In this document: in pieces, positions 2,464-34,481 of the stretch
How positions within the stretch are numbered: the first letter of the stretch is position 1
Layout: every line of letters starts with the position of its first letter
NCBI GenBank assembly: GCA_039809385.1
Contig: JBDHUY010000015.1
Coordinates: 1 to 39,211 of the forward strand
Reading direction: 5' to 3'
From: Candidatus Altimarinota bacterium
GTDB taxonomy: Bacteria > Patescibacteriota > Gracilibacteria > JBDHUY01
DNA length: 39,211 bases
The notes under the pieces: generated by a model
Told to the model about the DNA's origin: nothing
Databases searched by the model: none
The model's input: only the letters and a program-made list of their open reading frames with translations
Program-made: the position numbers and the translations under genes

Positions 2464-2532
2464 CTGTTCGCTGTTAACTGTAAGCCATGCTCCTGTCCCC
2501 TCTCCATTCTCCCAACTCCGCTCTCCTAACTC
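2464..2532 (-). repeat. Degenerate 7-nt tandem arrays at the tyrS 3' end
   Basis: Minus strand: gagttag gagagcg gagttgg gagaatg gagaggg gacagga, then ggcttac agttaac agcgaac. Confidence 0.6.
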
Positions 2533-3728
2533 TTCGGCACCAGCCGAACCATCGTCCGTTTCCCCAACTGCAGCACAACGGGTTGGCTGACGGCAAGACG
2601 CAGATTAATATCTTCGACTTTCTCGCTGTCCAATTTCACTCCCCCGCCCCGGATCATGTTTCTGGTTTCTGTTTTGGAAGGGGTTAACTTCAGTTCTGCT
2701 ACCAGATCGACCAAGAGTTGTTCCCCACTCGCAACCGGAACTTCGGGGATCTCGTCGGGAATATCTTTTTTCTGAAATACGGTGATAAAATGCTGCTCGG
2801 CTTCCTGTGCCGCACTTTCCGAATGATATAAACGCACGATCTCACGCGCCAGACGCATTTTTACATTGCGCGGATTTTCGCCAGCTTCCAATTCTTTCTT
2901 AATATCTTTTATATCTTCGATCGATACATCCGTCGCAAGTTCAAAGTATTTCAGGATAAGCGTATCGGGAATCGACATGGTCTTGCCATACATATCCTCC
3001 GGCTTGTCGGTAATACCGATATAATTTCCCAGAGATTTGCTCATCTTTTCATGTCCGTCGAGACCTTCCAGTATCGGAACGGTCAGGATGTTCTGAGGTT
3101 GCTGATCAAAGGCTTTCTGGAGCGGGCGTCCGGCCAGCAGATTAAACAGCTGATCGGTTCCGCCGATCTCGACATCGGCTTTGAGGGCTACCGAATCATA
3201 TCCCTGCATCAGGGGGTACAGGAATTCATGTAAACCGATCGGAATATCGTTTTTGAGCCGCTCCTGAAACATGTCGCGCTGGATCATTTGCTGCATGGTG
3301 AACTGCGAGCAAAGATGAATAAGCTCCTCGAATGTCAGAGGCGCGAGCCATTCGTGATTATACCGGATTTCGATTCTCTCCGTATCGATTACTTTGCGAG
3401 CTTGATCAAACCACAATTTTAGGTTTTCCTGAATCTGCTCCATCGTCAGCATATCGCGTCCTTTGGACTTTCCGGAAGGATCGCCGATACGGGCGGTAAA
3501 CGTTCCGATAACCAAAACGACTTGGTGTCCGGCTTCCTGAAAATGTTTGAGCTTTCGTAAAACCACAGCATGACCGATGTGCAGATCTTTGCCGGTGGGA
3601 TCGATTCCTAGTTTAACGCGCAGCTGTTTGCCGGATTCCAGCTTGACGCGTAAGTCTTCTTTCACGATCACATCTACCACCCCGCGTGTCATGAGTGTTT
3701 CAATTGTTTGAGGATCGGTTTTTATCAT
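2526..3728 (-). CDS. tyrS: Tyrosine--tRNA ligase
   Basis: LGIDPTG, HIGH, YPLMQGYD, GGTDQLFN, KMSKS and a C-terminal S4-like domain. Confidence 0.98.
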   Translation of the reverse strand: MIKTDPQTIETLMTRGVVDVIVKEDLRVKLESGKQLRVKLGIDPTGKDLHIGHAVVLRKLKHFQEAGHQVVLVIGTFTARIGDPSGKSKGRDMLTMEQIQENLKLWFDQARKVIDTERIEIRYNHEWLAPLTFEELIHLCSQFTMQQMIQRDMFQERLKNDIPIGLHEFLYPLMQGYDSVALKADVEIGGTDQLFNLLAGRPLQKAFDQQPQNILTVPILEGLDGHEKMSKSLGNYIGITDKPEDMYGKTMSIPDTLILKYFELATDVSIEDIKDIKKELEAGENPRNVKMRLAREIVRLYHSESAAQEAEQHFITVFQKKDIPDEIPEVPVASGEQLLVDLVAELKLTPSKTETRNMIRGGGVKLDSEKVEDINLRLAVSQPVVLQLGKRTMVRLVPKS

Positions 3729-3983
3729 AAATTTTAGGTAAATATACGCCTATGATTTTACGGGTTTTCTTGTGAAATAAAAGGACTTTTTGGATTCCGG
3801 AAAAAACATGATACAAAAATCAACAGCTGAGATCCCGGAATTTAGAAAAATACCGGTGTCCGAGAATTTGATCGAATAGCACGAATCAAATAATGGGGAT
3901 CTGTAAACCCAATTTTTTGGGAAACGATACCGATTCGAACTTCAGAAGAAGAGAATCTTCATTGTAAAATAATCCAAACTATA

Positions 3984-4011
3984 TTGACATTATTTTTTTC
4001 TGTTTTAGAAT
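3984..4011 (+). promoter_or_regulatory. Near-consensus sigma70 promoter of the sRNA candidate
   Basis: TTGACA(3984-3989)-16 nt-TAGAAT(4006-4011); no + strand ORF downstream. Confidence 0.7.
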
Positions 4012-4017
4012 AAATAT

Positions 4018-4097
4018 GTCCACAGAAATGTGGGCCTGGTTTCCGCCCGCGAGATGTCAGGTTACTCCTCCTTCCACCTCATCCCGCGGGCATTTTT
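4018..4097 (+). ncRNA. Candidate ~80 nt two-hairpin sRNA with CU-rich loop
   Basis: Starts 7 nt after the -10 box; GUCCACA-GAAA-UGUGGGC hairpin; GC-rich hairpin 4045-4091 with loop UACUCCUCCUUCC; AUUUUU tail. Confidence 0.65.
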
Positions 4098-4114
4098 AAA
4101 TACTGCGAAAACAC

Positions 4115-4149
4115 AAAAAATTCGGAGGTAATCATACTCCGAATCTTTT
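4115..4149 (-). terminator. Intrinsic terminator of the SLH gene (probably bidirectional)
   Basis: ATTCGGAG/CTCCGAAT stem flanked by an A6 run and CTTTT. Confidence 0.75.
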
Positions 4150-4166
4150 GAAAAAAGCAATGAAAA

Positions 4167-5099
4167 TCAGAACCCGTTTATCAAAACCATCATAACCGCG
4201 GTCGCTCCACGCGTCATCAGATCGTCGGGACCAAAATAACCGTTCTGAGATCCCTGAGCATATCCCATCAGGACGGCAAAAGCTACGTAAGGTTCATACC
4301 AGCTCCCTTTGACAGTATCAATGAAATTCATGATCCCGCCCACGATCTGGTTGAATGAGAAATTACGAAGCAACAGCACCTTGATCACCTCGACCCGGTT
4401 GGCAACCTGCATCGGACGGAAGTTTCCATCGGGATAGCCGGATACCCATTTGAGTTCCTTAGCCTTGGCCAGATACGGAGCATACCAGTCAGAGGTACGC
4501 ACATCCGGAAACGGATCGACACTCGGCGTACTGACCTGTATTCCCTTACATTTGATTCCGAATATTACCAGTTCAGCCCGGGTGATGTACCCGTCAGCCT
4601 TGAATTGCTTCAAAAGATTACCGTTCAGATCGGTATACCCGTCAATGCCGCAGGACGTATGCAACTTCTCCACAAAAGGTTCGTAGGGCGTACCAGCAGT
4701 ATCCTGAAAAAATACCGCCCCTGCCGAACTACCATTCGAATTTCCATTACTTCCGCCGGAGCCGCCACTATTCGTGTTAGTGATTGCGCCATTCACATTT
4801 CCCGAAGTGCCGTTGCTGTTGGGAGAGGTACATTCGATACTTGTATCACAGGTATCGCTCCCCAGTCCGCCGACCGGAATACAGGAACCGTTCACACAAT
4901 CGTAATGATAGCGCAGTCCTCCGCCACCTCCACCACCGCCGCCGCCTCCTCCCCCTCCTCCATACCCTTGGGAGAGAACTTTGGAAATAAAAAGGTCTCC
5001 GTGTTGTTCGTTATTCAAAATAACGCCAAGTCCAATAAAAAGGACAAGCAAAATAAAATATTTGCCTGCTTTCGATGCCAATGAAAGAAACATTGACAT
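4167..5099 (-). CDS. Membrane-anchored/secreted S-layer homology (SLH) domain protein
   Basis: N-terminal hydrophobic segment, poly-Gly tract, Cys-rich mini-domain, G/S/N linker, three SLH repeats (ITRAEL, GYPDGNFRP...NRVEV, MTRGAT). Confidence 0.88.
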   Translation of the reverse strand: MSMFLSLASKAGKYFILLVLFIGLGVILNNEQHGDLFISKVLSQGYGGGGGGGGGGGGGGGLRYHYDCVNGSCIPVGGLGSDTCDTSIECTSPNSNGTSGNVNGAITNTNSGGSGGSNGNSNGSSAGAVFFQDTAGTPYEPFVEKLHTSCGIDGYTDLNGNLLKQFKADGYITRAELVIFGIKCKGIQVSTPSVDPFPDVRTSDWYAPYLAKAKELKWVSGYPDGNFRPMQVANRVEVIKVLLLRNFSFNQIVGGIMNFIDTVKGSWYEPYVAFAVLMGYAQGSQNGYFGPDDLMTRGATAVMMVLINGF

Positions 5100-5138
5100 A
5101 GATGGTTGCGATTAAAAAATGAAAGTTAACACGACTTT

Positions 5139-5167
5139 ACATTACGGTTTCCGAGGTTATGTGTCAA
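5139..5167 (-). promoter_or_regulatory. Promoter of the SLH gene
   Basis: Minus strand TTGACA-17 nt-TAATGT. Confidence 0.5.
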
Positions 5168-5277
5168 TGGAAGTTGGACACCATAATTGTTTTTGTCAAT
5201 ACATTCTAAAAAGACTATGAGTAAATGGCATGCTCTAAGCAATCTTCTAGCGCAGGATACGTTGAATGAAGAAAAAA

Positions 5278-7511
5278 CTATTGAACCTTCAGAGCTCGGG
5301 CCAGAATCTCAGCTGTCTGAAGGCGAGTGACTTCTCCGTCGGGGCAAAATTTGCGGGCAGACTCGTCGCAGTAATCCATGAGGCCGGTTTGTAGAACAAA
5401 AGCAATACTGTCGGAGGAATATCTGTCAGAATCGGCGATGTCGGTATTTTTGCGTTTTTCAGGCAGAATTTTATTACGATACAAACGCTTGAGCGTATAG
5501 GCAATTTCGCCGCGGGTAAGAAGAGCCGACGGACAGTACTGACGGGAGACAGTATCGCACCAGGTCACCAGTTTGCGGTTGATTGCTTCGGCCACATACG
5601 GATAAATGAGATCGTTGTGGGGAATATCGCCGACAGTTGTTTCGTAGTCCCGCGGATCCAAGGGGATCACACCGATCAACTTGGTCACTATGACGGCCCA
5701 GTCTCCACGTTTTACGGTTCCTTCGGGGCGAAACAGGTTGCCAGAAGAAGACATCAGTTTATTGGTAAGCACAACCTGAACGGAAGGATATTCGCTGAAA
5801 TCGATATCATCCAGTTTTTCAAAGGCAAACCGGAGGTTACTTTTGCTCAATTCGTTTTGTACATCCAGCGGATCAAGCTGCTTGGGGCTGATGCCTTTAA
5901 GAGCGGCCAGAGCCGCGATAGCACCGGAGGCCTGACCGGTATACATAGTCACCGGTTGTAAGCGGGTCATACCGTTGACAATCCGGCTAACCGATATATT
6001 TTTTTCGGCAGCAAGCAGACCGTCGATATCGGCCGAAATGAATACCCCCATCGGGGTCTGTAAAATACGACGCGTGGTGGAAAGATGTTTTTCCGAGTCG
6101 ATACTTTCCAAGTTGGTTTTGGCCAGACAACCATGCAGATCGGGAAAATAATCGCCTACGGCTACCGCATTGGCAAAATCACTGATAGCATGCTGCTGAT
6201 AGCCAATTACAATATCGGAAGAATCTTCGGTTTCCAGTCCGACCATACGGCGGCTTTCCCGTACATACGGCATGACCGGCAGATATTTCTCAAAATTTTT
6301 GAGCGAACCGGAGATTTCGGAACAACTATTCTCTTCCGTATTATAGGGCGTATCGTACTCTTCGTCAGTAGCCAGCGACCAGTCGGTCGCCCCCAGTTCG
6401 TGCTGGATATAATAGACATACTGCAAAGTTTTGAGCTTGGCGGCGCAGGTAACGTTTTTTCGATAGACCGGATCTTCGATATAGCGAATAGTAGCCGGCG
6501 TATCGTTAGCCATATTCACCACGGTCTTGGAGATGCTGTTCACAAACCACGGTTTGGTAAAATCCACCACATAGTCGCTCGCGCGGGGGTCAGAATCGGG
6601 CAGGCCGCGATACCCGGCGGCAAACTGCCAGTCGTAGGGGAATTTATAGTTGTAGGGAAAGACATTTTTGCCGTCAACCAGCCAGCTGTTGCCGTCCTTC
6701 ACGACACTGCGCCGAAACACCTGTGCGGCCTCGGAATAGCTTTTTTTCCCACCCGGCGGATCGTTGACATCCATGACCAGCTCCGGCGGTACGCCATCAA
6801 AATATTTCCTGACTACGGCCGAATAGGTGATCGACTGAATACAGGAACCGCTCCCGGTCTGAGCCGTCTCATTAGTCTCATTGCCAACACGATAGGAAGC
6901 TCCCGCGAGCGGAAGCATATCACCATACTCGGTCGCGTCGATTAAAACCGAAGTCTTGAAACGAAGCAGATTATACTCCAGAACTTTACTCGCGGTTTCC
7001 ACACCGACTATTTTTTTATTATATGTAATCACCTTGTATACATTCGTACGCAAGTACAGATCAATATGCTCATTCTCCGCAACCATCTCTTGCAAAATCC
7101 GGTTCCCCACATGCGGCTCGATACACCGGCTGCCGGTTCCCCAATAACACGTATTGATCGGTTTATCGCCATAATAGGATTTCACCCGCTGCATAAATTC
7201 TTTAAAAATACCATAATCTGCGCCCAATAAATAGCCTTCGTCCAGAGAACCGACCGCCGCGGCCGTCATCTGTCCGCCCAGCCAGTCCGTCGGTTCGATC
7301 AGCGCCACCGATACCCCATCCTCGCGGCCTGCAAAGCAGCAGATACACCGCCGGTCCCCCCGCCGACGACGATGACGTCATATTGCTTCGTAAAAAGTCC
7401 CGGATCATAGGTTGCAGTCGTATTGCCTGACATCTGGAAAGCGAAAACGAGCACAATAACGAGTCCCAGGAATAGCGAGATCGAAATGATTTTCTGTCGC
7501 ATATATGTCAT
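5278..7511 (-). pseudogene. FAD-dependent oxidoreductase (FAD_oxidored-like) with C-terminal SLH repeats, split by a 1-nt frameshift
   Basis: 7299..7511 encodes a signal anchor plus YDVIVVGGGTGGVSAALQAARMG; 5278..7308 continues VALIEPTDWLGGQ...IDATEYGD...PYVRESRR...RLQP and three SLH-like repeats. One extra G in the G4 run at 7314-7317 fuses them (M-G-V-S-V-A-L-I-E). Confidence 0.85.
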
Positions 7512-33875: not shown

Positions 33876-33914
33876 AAAAAAGACGCTATGACTGGGTAGT
33901 CAGGGAGCGTCTTT
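33876..33914 (-). terminator. Intrinsic terminator upstream of the ftsW promoter
   Basis: AAAGACGCT/AGCGTCTTT plus inner TGACT/AGTCA; T6 tail on the minus strand. Confidence 0.7.
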
Positions 33915-33915
33915 C

Positions 33916-34202
33916 TCGAGTGAACCTTATAAGTAGCGGTTTAATGTATAGTTGCTACTCAAGGCGACATCACCCGAACGAAGGGTCACCAACCTTCAGG
34001 TATTACCGTTCATCAAGAGTGAAAAACGGAACCTCTGCCATACTTTGGTTTTATTATCCCAAAATCCGTAAGGGTTGCTTTTGAGCGACTGTATCCGTCC
34101 CGATTTCGAGCTTGACACGATGGTCAATGAAACGGTAAAATACAATCAAGCAATAGAGATTAAAAGTCTTTCTGAGGAAGAATCTTCAGGAAGACTTTTT
34201 TT
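33916..34202 (+). ncRNA. Structured ncRNA candidate A (possibly 6S-like; unassigned)
   Basis: Long irregular stem 34000-34013/34127-34143 with nested helices and a GUAA tetraloop; G-U pairs favour +; ends in a T7 terminator; no ORF. 5' end uncertain. Confidence 0.5.
34162..34202 (+). terminator. Intrinsic terminator (strong on +, weaker on -)
   Basis: AAAAGTCTTTCTGAGGA-AGAA-TCTTCAGGAAGACTTTTTTT. Confidence 0.8.
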
Positions 34203-34481
34203 AAGTCTCCGACGGTGAGGCGGAAACTGATTATCGTACAGCAGAGAAAAAGCAGCATGCAGGAGCCCCGCCCTTGGCGGGGGAGGACGAGTCTATCCGG
34301 TCCGCGGCCAAGATAAGATGCTCGTCCTGTATGCTCCTTTTTCTCTGCGGGGCTGATTTTCAATGATCGTTTGGTTGTGGAGTGAAAGAAATGCGCGGGC
34401 CCGCGCTTCACCCTTCTTTCTTTTTTTATGTTTTTTTATTTTTGAAACCGTGTTTGTGTTCTTTCTTGTTTTTTTTGTTTT
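34203..34481 (-). ncRNA. Structured ncRNA candidate B (unassigned)
   Basis: Minus-strand promoter TTGAAC(34510-34515)-16 nt-TATCAT(34488-34493); A-rich 5' part; 24-bp near-perfect stem 34241-34264/34325-34348 enclosing two GC-rich hairpins. Strand not fully certain. Confidence 0.5.

Follow-up and report, generated by a model that had tools for sequence, protein, structure and literature searches.

The cuckoo RNAs (small RNAs, or sRNAs, with the motif CCUCCUCCC; the RSs0680 / SmelC397 group) are, in the part of PMC4615179 that describes them, made of 2-4 adjacent hairpins whose loops each display CCUCCUCCC, and they occur in several copies per alphaproteobacterial genome, at least one of them bound by Hfq; the same text cites the general idea that C-rich loops may base-pair with ribosome-binding sites rich in G, independently of Hfq. 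Here we report on a candidate RNA with a C/U-rich loop from Candidatus Altimarinota bacterium (assembly GCA_039809385.1), which would be encoded by an element at positions 3984-4097 (+ strand) of a 39,211-nucleotide (nt) stretch of contig JBDHUY010000015.1 (the window). A preliminary description had taken this element for an unannotated trans-acting sRNA that might act on messages with a Shine-Dalgarno (SD) sequence; its first part stands in so far as the element forms a self-contained unit of promoter, two hairpins and T-run, and its second part, action on SD-bearing mRNAs, is left unsupported by our analysis. Our own reading, in which our confidence is evenly divided, is that 3984-4097 would be an independent + strand gene for a non-coding RNA of ~80 nt, limited to a thinly sampled, Peribacteria-like lineage. 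C-rich loops are also displayed by staphylococcal sRNAs (RNAIII and the Rsa RNAs with UCCC), and RNAIII shows one on its terminator hairpin itself.

Judged by its sequence, the element resembles the C-rich-loop sRNAs in outline and is a member of none of those families. With the cuckoo RNAs, as far as the description in PMC4615179 extends, it would share the form of a small trans-encoded RNA, an anti-SD-like C/U-rich loop and a terminator-like 3' hairpin. However, only one of its two hairpins is C/U-rich, with a loop that reads CUCCUCCUUCC and lacks the exact CCUCCUCCC, and the element is single-copy, in a Peribacteria/Gracilibacteria-like host in which no Hfq gene was found, and has no Rfam match. 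Membership in the cuckoo family was rejected because hairpin 1 carries a GAAA loop instead of the motif and because there are not several copies. Likewise, a C-rich loop is displayed by the element and the staphylococcal sRNAs alike, but the loop of the element is without UCCC and there is no sequence or Rfam relation. The kinship with cuckoo or UCCC families that the preliminary description had brought up does not hold, since CCUCCUCCC and UCCC are both absent from the loop. Scans against all families of Rfam release 15 (SRP RNA, T-box, RsaE and CsrB among them), in which membership required a covariance-model score that reached the curated gathering score, found only a tRNA-Ser in the whole window and nothing at the element, and the best match in 3700-4250 at E values up to 10 was Cyano-2 (14.4 bits versus a gathering score of 40), so that the element matches no Rfam family.

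Two further comparisons concern translation and its regulators. The loop of the element and the 3' tail of 16S rRNA have CCUCCUU in common, although the copy in the element sits in the hairpin loop of an 80-nt RNA whereas the tail is a free 3' end, and no other likeness of the element to helix 45 or the tail was seen by eye. On the minus strand, the hairpin loop presents GGA repeats as do the CsrB/RsmZ sponges, but as one hairpin versus many, with no Rfam match and no CsrA gene found (PF02599, 0 matches in the 95% complete own genome). A CsrA sponge was ruled out on the single hairpin and the 0 matches to PF02599. A Csr/Rsm-like role for the minus strand had been raised as a caveat: the loop is indeed GGA-rich on that strand, and the sponge reading itself is weakened because no CsrA gene was found. 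That neither Hfq nor CsrA was found fits pairing mediated by the loop without a chaperone and speaks against a Csr-type sponge.

The putative RNA and its promoter comprise the following parts.

3984-4011, + strand: predicted sigma-70-type promoter, with the -35 box TTGACA at 3984-3989, a 16-nt spacer and the -10 box TAGAAT at 4006-4011
4018-4035, + strand: hairpin 1 (5'), 7 base pairs (bp) including one G-U, closed by a GAAA tetraloop, in both the minimum free energy (MFE) and the centroid structure
4036-4044, + strand: single-stranded linker CCUGGUUUC, 9 nt, mean probability of being unpaired 0.875
4045-4091, + strand: hairpin 2, GC-rich, 47 nt, doubling as the putative terminator stem
4063-4075, + strand: 13-nt loop UACUCCUCCUUCC, mean probability of being unpaired 0.968
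4092-4097, + strand: T-run AUUUUU after hairpin 2, the tail of an intrinsic terminator as predicted from sequence
4016-4099, + strand: 27-codon open reading frame (ORF), a rival feature, ATG at 4016 and TAA at 4097-4099, spanning the whole putative RNA

Folding of 4016-4100 on the + strand gave -32.7 kcal/mol (z -4.46; 0 of 200 shuffles as good), with the MFE structure accounting for 37% of the ensemble and the loop of hairpin 1 unpaired in 100% of it. Hairpin 1 begins at the 7th base past the -10 box, and the predicted RNA start is G4018 +/-2. Hairpin 2, which alone folds at -21.1 kcal/mol, contains 15 standard pairs, interrupted by an A4052.C4084 mismatch and by a bulge of 2 nt (4057-4058). 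Both hairpins had been proposed before, the 7-bp GAAA hairpin with its distance from the -10 box and the ~16-bp GC-rich hairpin with its 13-nt loop and AUUUUU tail, and both were recovered, as was the conversion of the A-C mismatch into G-U in the minus-strand fold. The minus strand folds about equally well (-33.8 kcal/mol, z -3.58), so that folding alone leaves the strand undecided. On that strand hairpin 1 has only 5 bp and a UUUC loop, and GGAAACC follows hairpin 2 without any T-run; three features are confined to the + strand, namely the T-run behind hairpin 2, the GNRA loop of hairpin 1 and the promoter ahead of both. Our terminator scan admitted loops of 3-8 nt only, and for that reason called neither hairpin 2 nor the terminator hairpin of the neighbouring SLH-domain gene; both terminator readings were taken from the sequence by eye.

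The near-consensus TTGACA-16-TAGAAT is present where it had been placed, scores 11/12 versus consensus and is the best of six promoter-like sites in 3000-5500 (shuffle mean 3.7). A genome-wide scan for TTGACA-N16-18-TATAAT at 11/12 or better returned 102 sites, 81 of which lie outside ORFs of at least 150 amino acids (aa), that is, in 21% of the genome; with 21 sites in the other 79%, this class of promoter is enriched ~15-fold outside long ORFs, and the 21 sites in 1.48 Mb of ORF sequence (both strands) give the chance level for sites of such quality. Most of the non-ORF sites (59/81) point to an ORF on the same strand, often 15-45 nt off. The 22 that point away from the nearest ORF of at least 150 aa include 11 with an ORF of at least 60 aa just downstream and two lying ~30 nt upstream of tRNA-Cys and tRNA-Leu; the remaining nine, the 3984 site included, have no ORF of at least 60 aa or tRNA within reach. 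On these counts the promoter class, including those with a 16-nt spacer, is functional in this genome, and activity of the 3984 site itself is predicted. The site at 3984 is directed away from tyrS. The preliminary description had it aimed at no ORF; no + strand gene follows, and the 27-codon ORF at 4016-4099 had been overlooked. As the next gene is the convergent SLH-domain gene and there is no + strand gene downstream, the element would be a unit without other product. The promoter scan also pointed to a second place in the own genome, C4:41490-41640 (+ strand), where a TTGACT-16-TATAAT promoter with no ORF of at least 60 aa or tRNA downstream is followed directly by a 5' hairpin and then by another, long one, the 120 nt folding at -33.7 kcal/mol; as a further sRNA candidate, it has no sequence kinship to the 3984-4097 element.

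We then compared the locus with public metagenome contigs aligned over 3400-4700. Only one run, X8, gave a useful relative, and the uncovered parts of the stretch in runs X5, X6 and X11 were uninformative. The X8 relative is represented by three contigs of roughly 88-94% identity, one of which (320 nt) spans 3975-4224 with 18 mismatches and 12 gap letters, where changes within ~30 nt of the ends of an aligned piece are unlisted. No listed change falls in 4015-4080, and hairpin 1, the linker and the 13-nt loop are all unchanged. Upstream, 4008 G>C converts the -10 box from TAGAAT to TACAAT with T1, A2 and T6 kept, and there are further changes at 4012 and 4014. In hairpin 2, 4081 A>C breaks the U4055-A4081 pair and 4084 C>T converts the A4052.C4084 mismatch to A-U, so that the hairpin folds at -21.8 versus -21.1 kcal/mol in X8 and in our sequence, respectively, and the whole element, with no overall change in energy, at -33.3 versus -32.7 on the + strand and -32.1 versus -33.8 on the minus strand. 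At the 3' end, 4092 A>T sets five T directly on the stem, and the T-run survives among three deletions (3, 1 and 6 nt) within 4097-4110. The conserved block extends from 9 nt upstream of the -35 box to the T-run, where it fades: the X8 contig is unlike our sequence before 3975 and the X8 contig on the tyrS side is unlike it beyond 3792, leaving 3793-3974 dissimilar. The 79-nt RNA body takes 3 of 17 listed events, for which binomial P is 0.035 relative to all eligible bases and 0.014 relative to the non-coding flanks only, values that are optimistic because they assume even divergence.

The 438-nt gap that contains the element is flanked by two minus-strand genes, and the terminator of one of them provides an internal control for this comparison.

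2526-3728, minus strand: tyrS (Pfam tRNA-synt_1b, E 2.5e-79)
4115-4149, minus strand: putative terminator of the SLH-domain gene, stem 4120-4127/4137-4144 followed by a minus-strand T-run, outside the putative RNA
4167-5099, minus strand: SLH-domain gene (Pfam SLH)

That the SLH gene has a terminator of its own, as proposed in the preliminary description, is borne out by the hairpin 4120-4127/4137-4144 and its minus-strand T-run, which are predicted to serve that gene. In X8 this terminator keeps 8-9 bp by way of the paired changes 4124 G>A/4140 C>T, has its register shifted by a deletion at 4126 and by 4138 T>C, and has a changed 9-nt loop, with energies in the X8 comparison of -11.6 against -10.9 kcal/mol on the + strand and -15.4 against -13.4 on the minus strand; the SLH gene itself differs at 56 of 474 bases. 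An ordinary terminator is accordingly free to vary in loop and stem at such a distance, and the loop, linker and hairpin 1 of the element appear to have been held constant where the SLH terminator varied.

Several results weigh against a dedicated RNA gene. The conservation comes from one contig of one run at a depth of 3.7, and 6 of the 18 mismatches are unlisted and would lie in 3975-4004 or 4195-4224, so that the -35 box may have changed. Divergence between the two genomes is patchy, 53 nt (4141-4193) and ~140 nt (3622-3762) being likewise without listed change, and it is for this unevenness that the P values above flatter the element. No compensatory pair was found within the element, where one stem change gains a pair and the other loses one, and the 27-codon ORF fills the RNA exactly, with both substitutions inside it synonymous. 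Homologues are missing: a covariance model based on the sequence and fold of the element recovered, among 151 class genomes, nothing but its own source locus and one noise match of 16.8 bits, hence no homologue in the 150 others in which covarying stems might have been sought; the order likewise yielded the element alone, and BLAST of the whole gap against 40 relatives returned only AT-rich pieces of at most 45 nt, none across the hairpins. Because the order of this organism consists of only two species genomes, absent homologues are weak evidence either way. None of the listed public runs that contain the locus is recorded as RNA, which says nothing on expression; the DNA runs with the locus come from activated sludge or wastewater. 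Finally, when the loop was scanned for duplexes with 1212 start regions, using 20 shuffled loops as control, the best duplex reached -19.3 kcal/mol (shuffled loops, down to -20.1) and 32 sites reached -12 kcal/mol or lower (shuffled loops, mean 23.3 and maximum 33), so that the search for targets of the postulated anti-SD action on SD-bearing mRNAs found the loop no better than shuffled loops.

The explanation that survives best next to an RNA gene, though we consider it unlikely, is that the locus has no dedicated function: a strong site resembling a promoter, or a genuine but idle promoter, would be insulated by a + strand terminator hairpin and give rise to a short by-product RNA or to none, and the apparent conservation would reflect patchy divergence of two close genomes. 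The other change-free blocks in the same X8 comparison, the stems without covariation and the absence of homologues (BLAST, covariance model) and of a target signal are all in keeping with it, as are the nine of 22 away-facing consensus promoters, this one among them, that lack an ORF of at least 60 aa or a tRNA, since they indicate that promoters without evident product are not rare here. On the other hand, such sites are rare by chance, as the count in ORF sequence indicates, the conserved block opens just before the -35 box and closes at the T-run, and the 13-nt loop and 5' hairpin are unchanged while the loop and stem of the SLH terminator changed. Moreover, a 16-bp stem with a 13-nt loop exceeds the needs of termination.

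An improbable alternative is that the locus is a tiny protein gene, transcribed into a leaderless or short-leader mRNA for a 27-aa peptide (4016-4096), or for one of 23 aa from the ATG at 4028, in which case the unit might act as an RNA too. The ORF opens 4 nt past the -10 box and closes with a TAA where the T-run ends, in a genome that does not use SD sequences and in which many starts lie only 15-45 nt past a consensus -10 box and one lies 5 nt past, and the X8 changes at 4081 and 4084 are at synonymous third positions of Ser codons. However, X8 has lost the TAA, and its frame, 38 codons long, reads on beyond the T-run at which the transcript is expected to stop. Across 4015-4080 all 22 third positions are unchanged, compared to the 56/474 differences in the SLH gene, which argues for constraint on nucleotides rather than on protein. 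The peptide has neither a Pfam match nor, by eye, a membrane-spanning or other recognisable feature, and a start at 4016 needs initiation only 5 nt past the -10 box. Two other ORFs of at least 30 aa, at 4030-4131 (+ strand) and 4062-4160 (minus strand), were rejected because X8 indels that are not multiples of three break their frames.

We give still less credence to the minus strand as the working strand. There the hairpin presents GGAAGGAGGAGUAA, a GGA-rich loop that looks like an SD and includes a GUAA resembling the Tyr anticodon, and might be a binding site for the ribosome or a protein (TyrRS or CsrA-like) in read-through transcripts of the SLH gene or in a long tyrS leader. The fold is slightly better on this strand, where the A.C mismatch turns into G-U, tyrS lies 316 nt downstream of hairpin 2, and 7 nt of the anti-SD kept in 16S rRNA would be complementary to the loop. 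Yet no promoter was found between the SLH terminator and the element, and the sole candidate, 3990-3961 (9/12), lies downstream of the hairpins with its -10 box outside the conserved block. The 182 nt toward tyrS (3793-3974) are unlike in X8, and the tyrS genes of the nearest relatives have short upstream gaps with no such element. Furthermore, no CsrA gene was found in the genome and no T-box match at the locus, the X8 changes weaken the minus fold (-33.8 to -32.1 kcal/mol) and slightly strengthen the + fold, and the conserved T-run has no role on this strand.

Other identities were discarded outright. A T-box leader of tyrS was ruled out as there is no RF00230 match at the locus (E up to 10), as promoter and T-run are opposite to the tyrS strand, and as the loop UAC and linker UGGU, by eye, have neither the order nor the strand that such a leader requires, while a tRNA-Tyr mimic (UAC and UGGU on the + strand, GUAA on the minus strand) amounts to after-the-fact pattern matching with no model match. 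A dispersed repeat or mobile element, which the preliminary description had listed as a possible refutation, was checked and excluded: the element is single-copy in the 1.87-Mb assembly, with 0 exact matches in viral contigs and no phage match. Signal recognition particle (SRP) RNA was ruled out, RF00169 and RF01854 each being above cut-off in 0/26 class genomes.

The T-box and SRP searches yielded observations of their own. Sub-threshold full-length matches to the T-box model RF00230 (24-26 bits versus a cut-off of 93) were found at C2:36229-36426 (+), C14:552-730 (+) and C5:19444-19616 (-) of the own genome; the first is followed, after 759 nt, by a 1338-aa ORF that at its start resembles isoleucyl-tRNA synthetase by eye, and the other two precede ORFs that do not resemble aminoacyl-tRNA synthetase genes. 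SRP was not found in the own genome and 25 class relatives (RF00169, RF01854, PF02978; PF00448 in the own genome): the Ffh M domain PF02978 has matches in 0/26 class genomes, and the SRP54-type GTPase PF00448 has 0 in the own genome, leaving it with no Ffh/FtsY domain. Two SRP subunits are missing from many bacteria of the candidate phyla radiation (CPR) in the portion of PMC8080830 consulted, and the absence here is to that extent already known, as CPR loss is reported there.

Returning to the reading as an independent gene for an ~80-nt RNA, the element itself is real and non-random, and its function would most likely be loop-mediated pairing; that the RNA is made, where it starts and ends, and all of its function are what we infer from the sequence and its one relative. 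RNA polymerase with the housekeeping sigma factor would start at ~G4018, and the GNRA-capped 7-bp hairpin would close the 5' end at once, shielding the RNA from decay. Hairpin 2 and the U-run would stop transcription, and the RNA would end short of the convergent SLH terminator. The unusually large 13-nt loop of the terminator hairpin would stay open and is the likely working part, which probably pairs, without Hfq, with purine-rich GGAGG-like stretches in the manner of C-rich loops in Gram-positive sRNAs; a protein partner of the loop is also possible.

The absence of SD sequences at starts, which the preliminary description had noted for a few genes, holds genome-wide on crude ORF calls (at least 150 aa): GGAGG occurs at -20..-3 of 3/1214 ORFs compared to 7 in each of two control windows, and no more than 10-16% of the bases upstream of these starts are G. 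Because host starts use no SD, the usual target class of C-rich-loop sRNAs is largely missing here. The 16S 3' tail is still GGATCACCTCCTTTCT, with CCUCC kept (it reads ...CACCTCCTTTCT), and the CCUCCUU of the loop is common to the own tail CACCUCCUUUCU; according to the part of PMC9297842 that treats it, the clade of this organism is often without bS21. SD-like words are undepleted genome-wide (AGGAGG, 658 versus a median of 735.5 among words of equal composition), and 9-mer complements of the loop are scattered in the genome with no pattern. The best duplex of the scan is at C9 ~43606-43625 (-), near 43617, where GGAAGGAGGAGG, closely preceded by a TTGACA, offers 10 bp of complementarity to the loop ~30 nt upstream of the first codon of a 356-aa ORF; yet it falls within the range of the shuffled control and is a lead only. 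A GGAGG site at C13:54407 was rejected as a target because it precedes a 19-codon ORF and no ribosomal protein gene. An anti-SD function of the loop would be a guess, neither supported nor refuted. A very improbable elaboration, to which we give slightly less weight than to the tiny protein gene, is that the RNA acts as a free-standing copy of the anti-SD tail, with CCUCCUU in an open loop, that would soak up or mask GGAGG-bearing RNAs, be they mRNAs of invading phages or of mobile elements, or those few SD-like stretches within host messages at which ribosomes would stall.

The genome assembly comprises 1.87 Mb in 26 contigs, is 95% complete and has 46% G+C. The closest tyrS relatives are titled Candidatus Peribacteria or Gracilibacteria (53-58% identity), which fits the Patescibacteria presumed in the preliminary description, the metagenome collection yielded no tyrS relative closer than 59% identity, and the tyrS genes of relatives (at most 59% identity) have different neighbours and short upstream gaps without such an element; a divergent ORF beside tyrS was seen, by eye only, in relatives L030-L033. 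Elsewhere in the window, a GAF-GGDEF protein (524-1909, +) and RuvC (1890-2372, +) are encoded on one side of the locus and an FAD-dependent oxidoreductase (5278-7308, -) on the other, and a cyclic di-GMP cyclase, the GAF-GGDEF protein, may merit attention in such a genome. A two-copy segment, 74% identical over 388 nt, occurs at 33876-34252 (+) of the window and at C12:31836-32208 of the own genome. It sits in a ~920-nt gap without a long ORF, and each copy has a consensus promoter (34112-34141 in the window), then a long perfect hairpin and a T-run, with a conserved ...ACAGCAGAGAAA... stretch and without any noteworthy match in Rfam.

The regulatory RNAs of Patescibacteria (CPR) have hardly been explored: full-text literature searching found no paper that combines Peregrinibacteria with sRNAs, and broader searching listed none on CPR sRNAs. 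The locus is a clean candidate in that it combines a strong native promoter, two hairpins, a predicted terminator and evidence of selection on the nucleotide sequence, in a host of unusual translation: SD sequences go unused, the anti-SD tail is retained, and neither an Hfq nor a CsrA gene was found. Should the RNA prove not to exist, the case would illustrate how readily a promoter followed by a terminator is mistaken for an sRNA gene. If it were a free-standing copy of the anti-SD tail, it would be a new kind of RNA filter on translation in Patescibacteria. If the RNA is real, its C/U-rich loop would provide a handle on the remaining roles of the retained anti-SD and of SD-like sequences in these bacteria.

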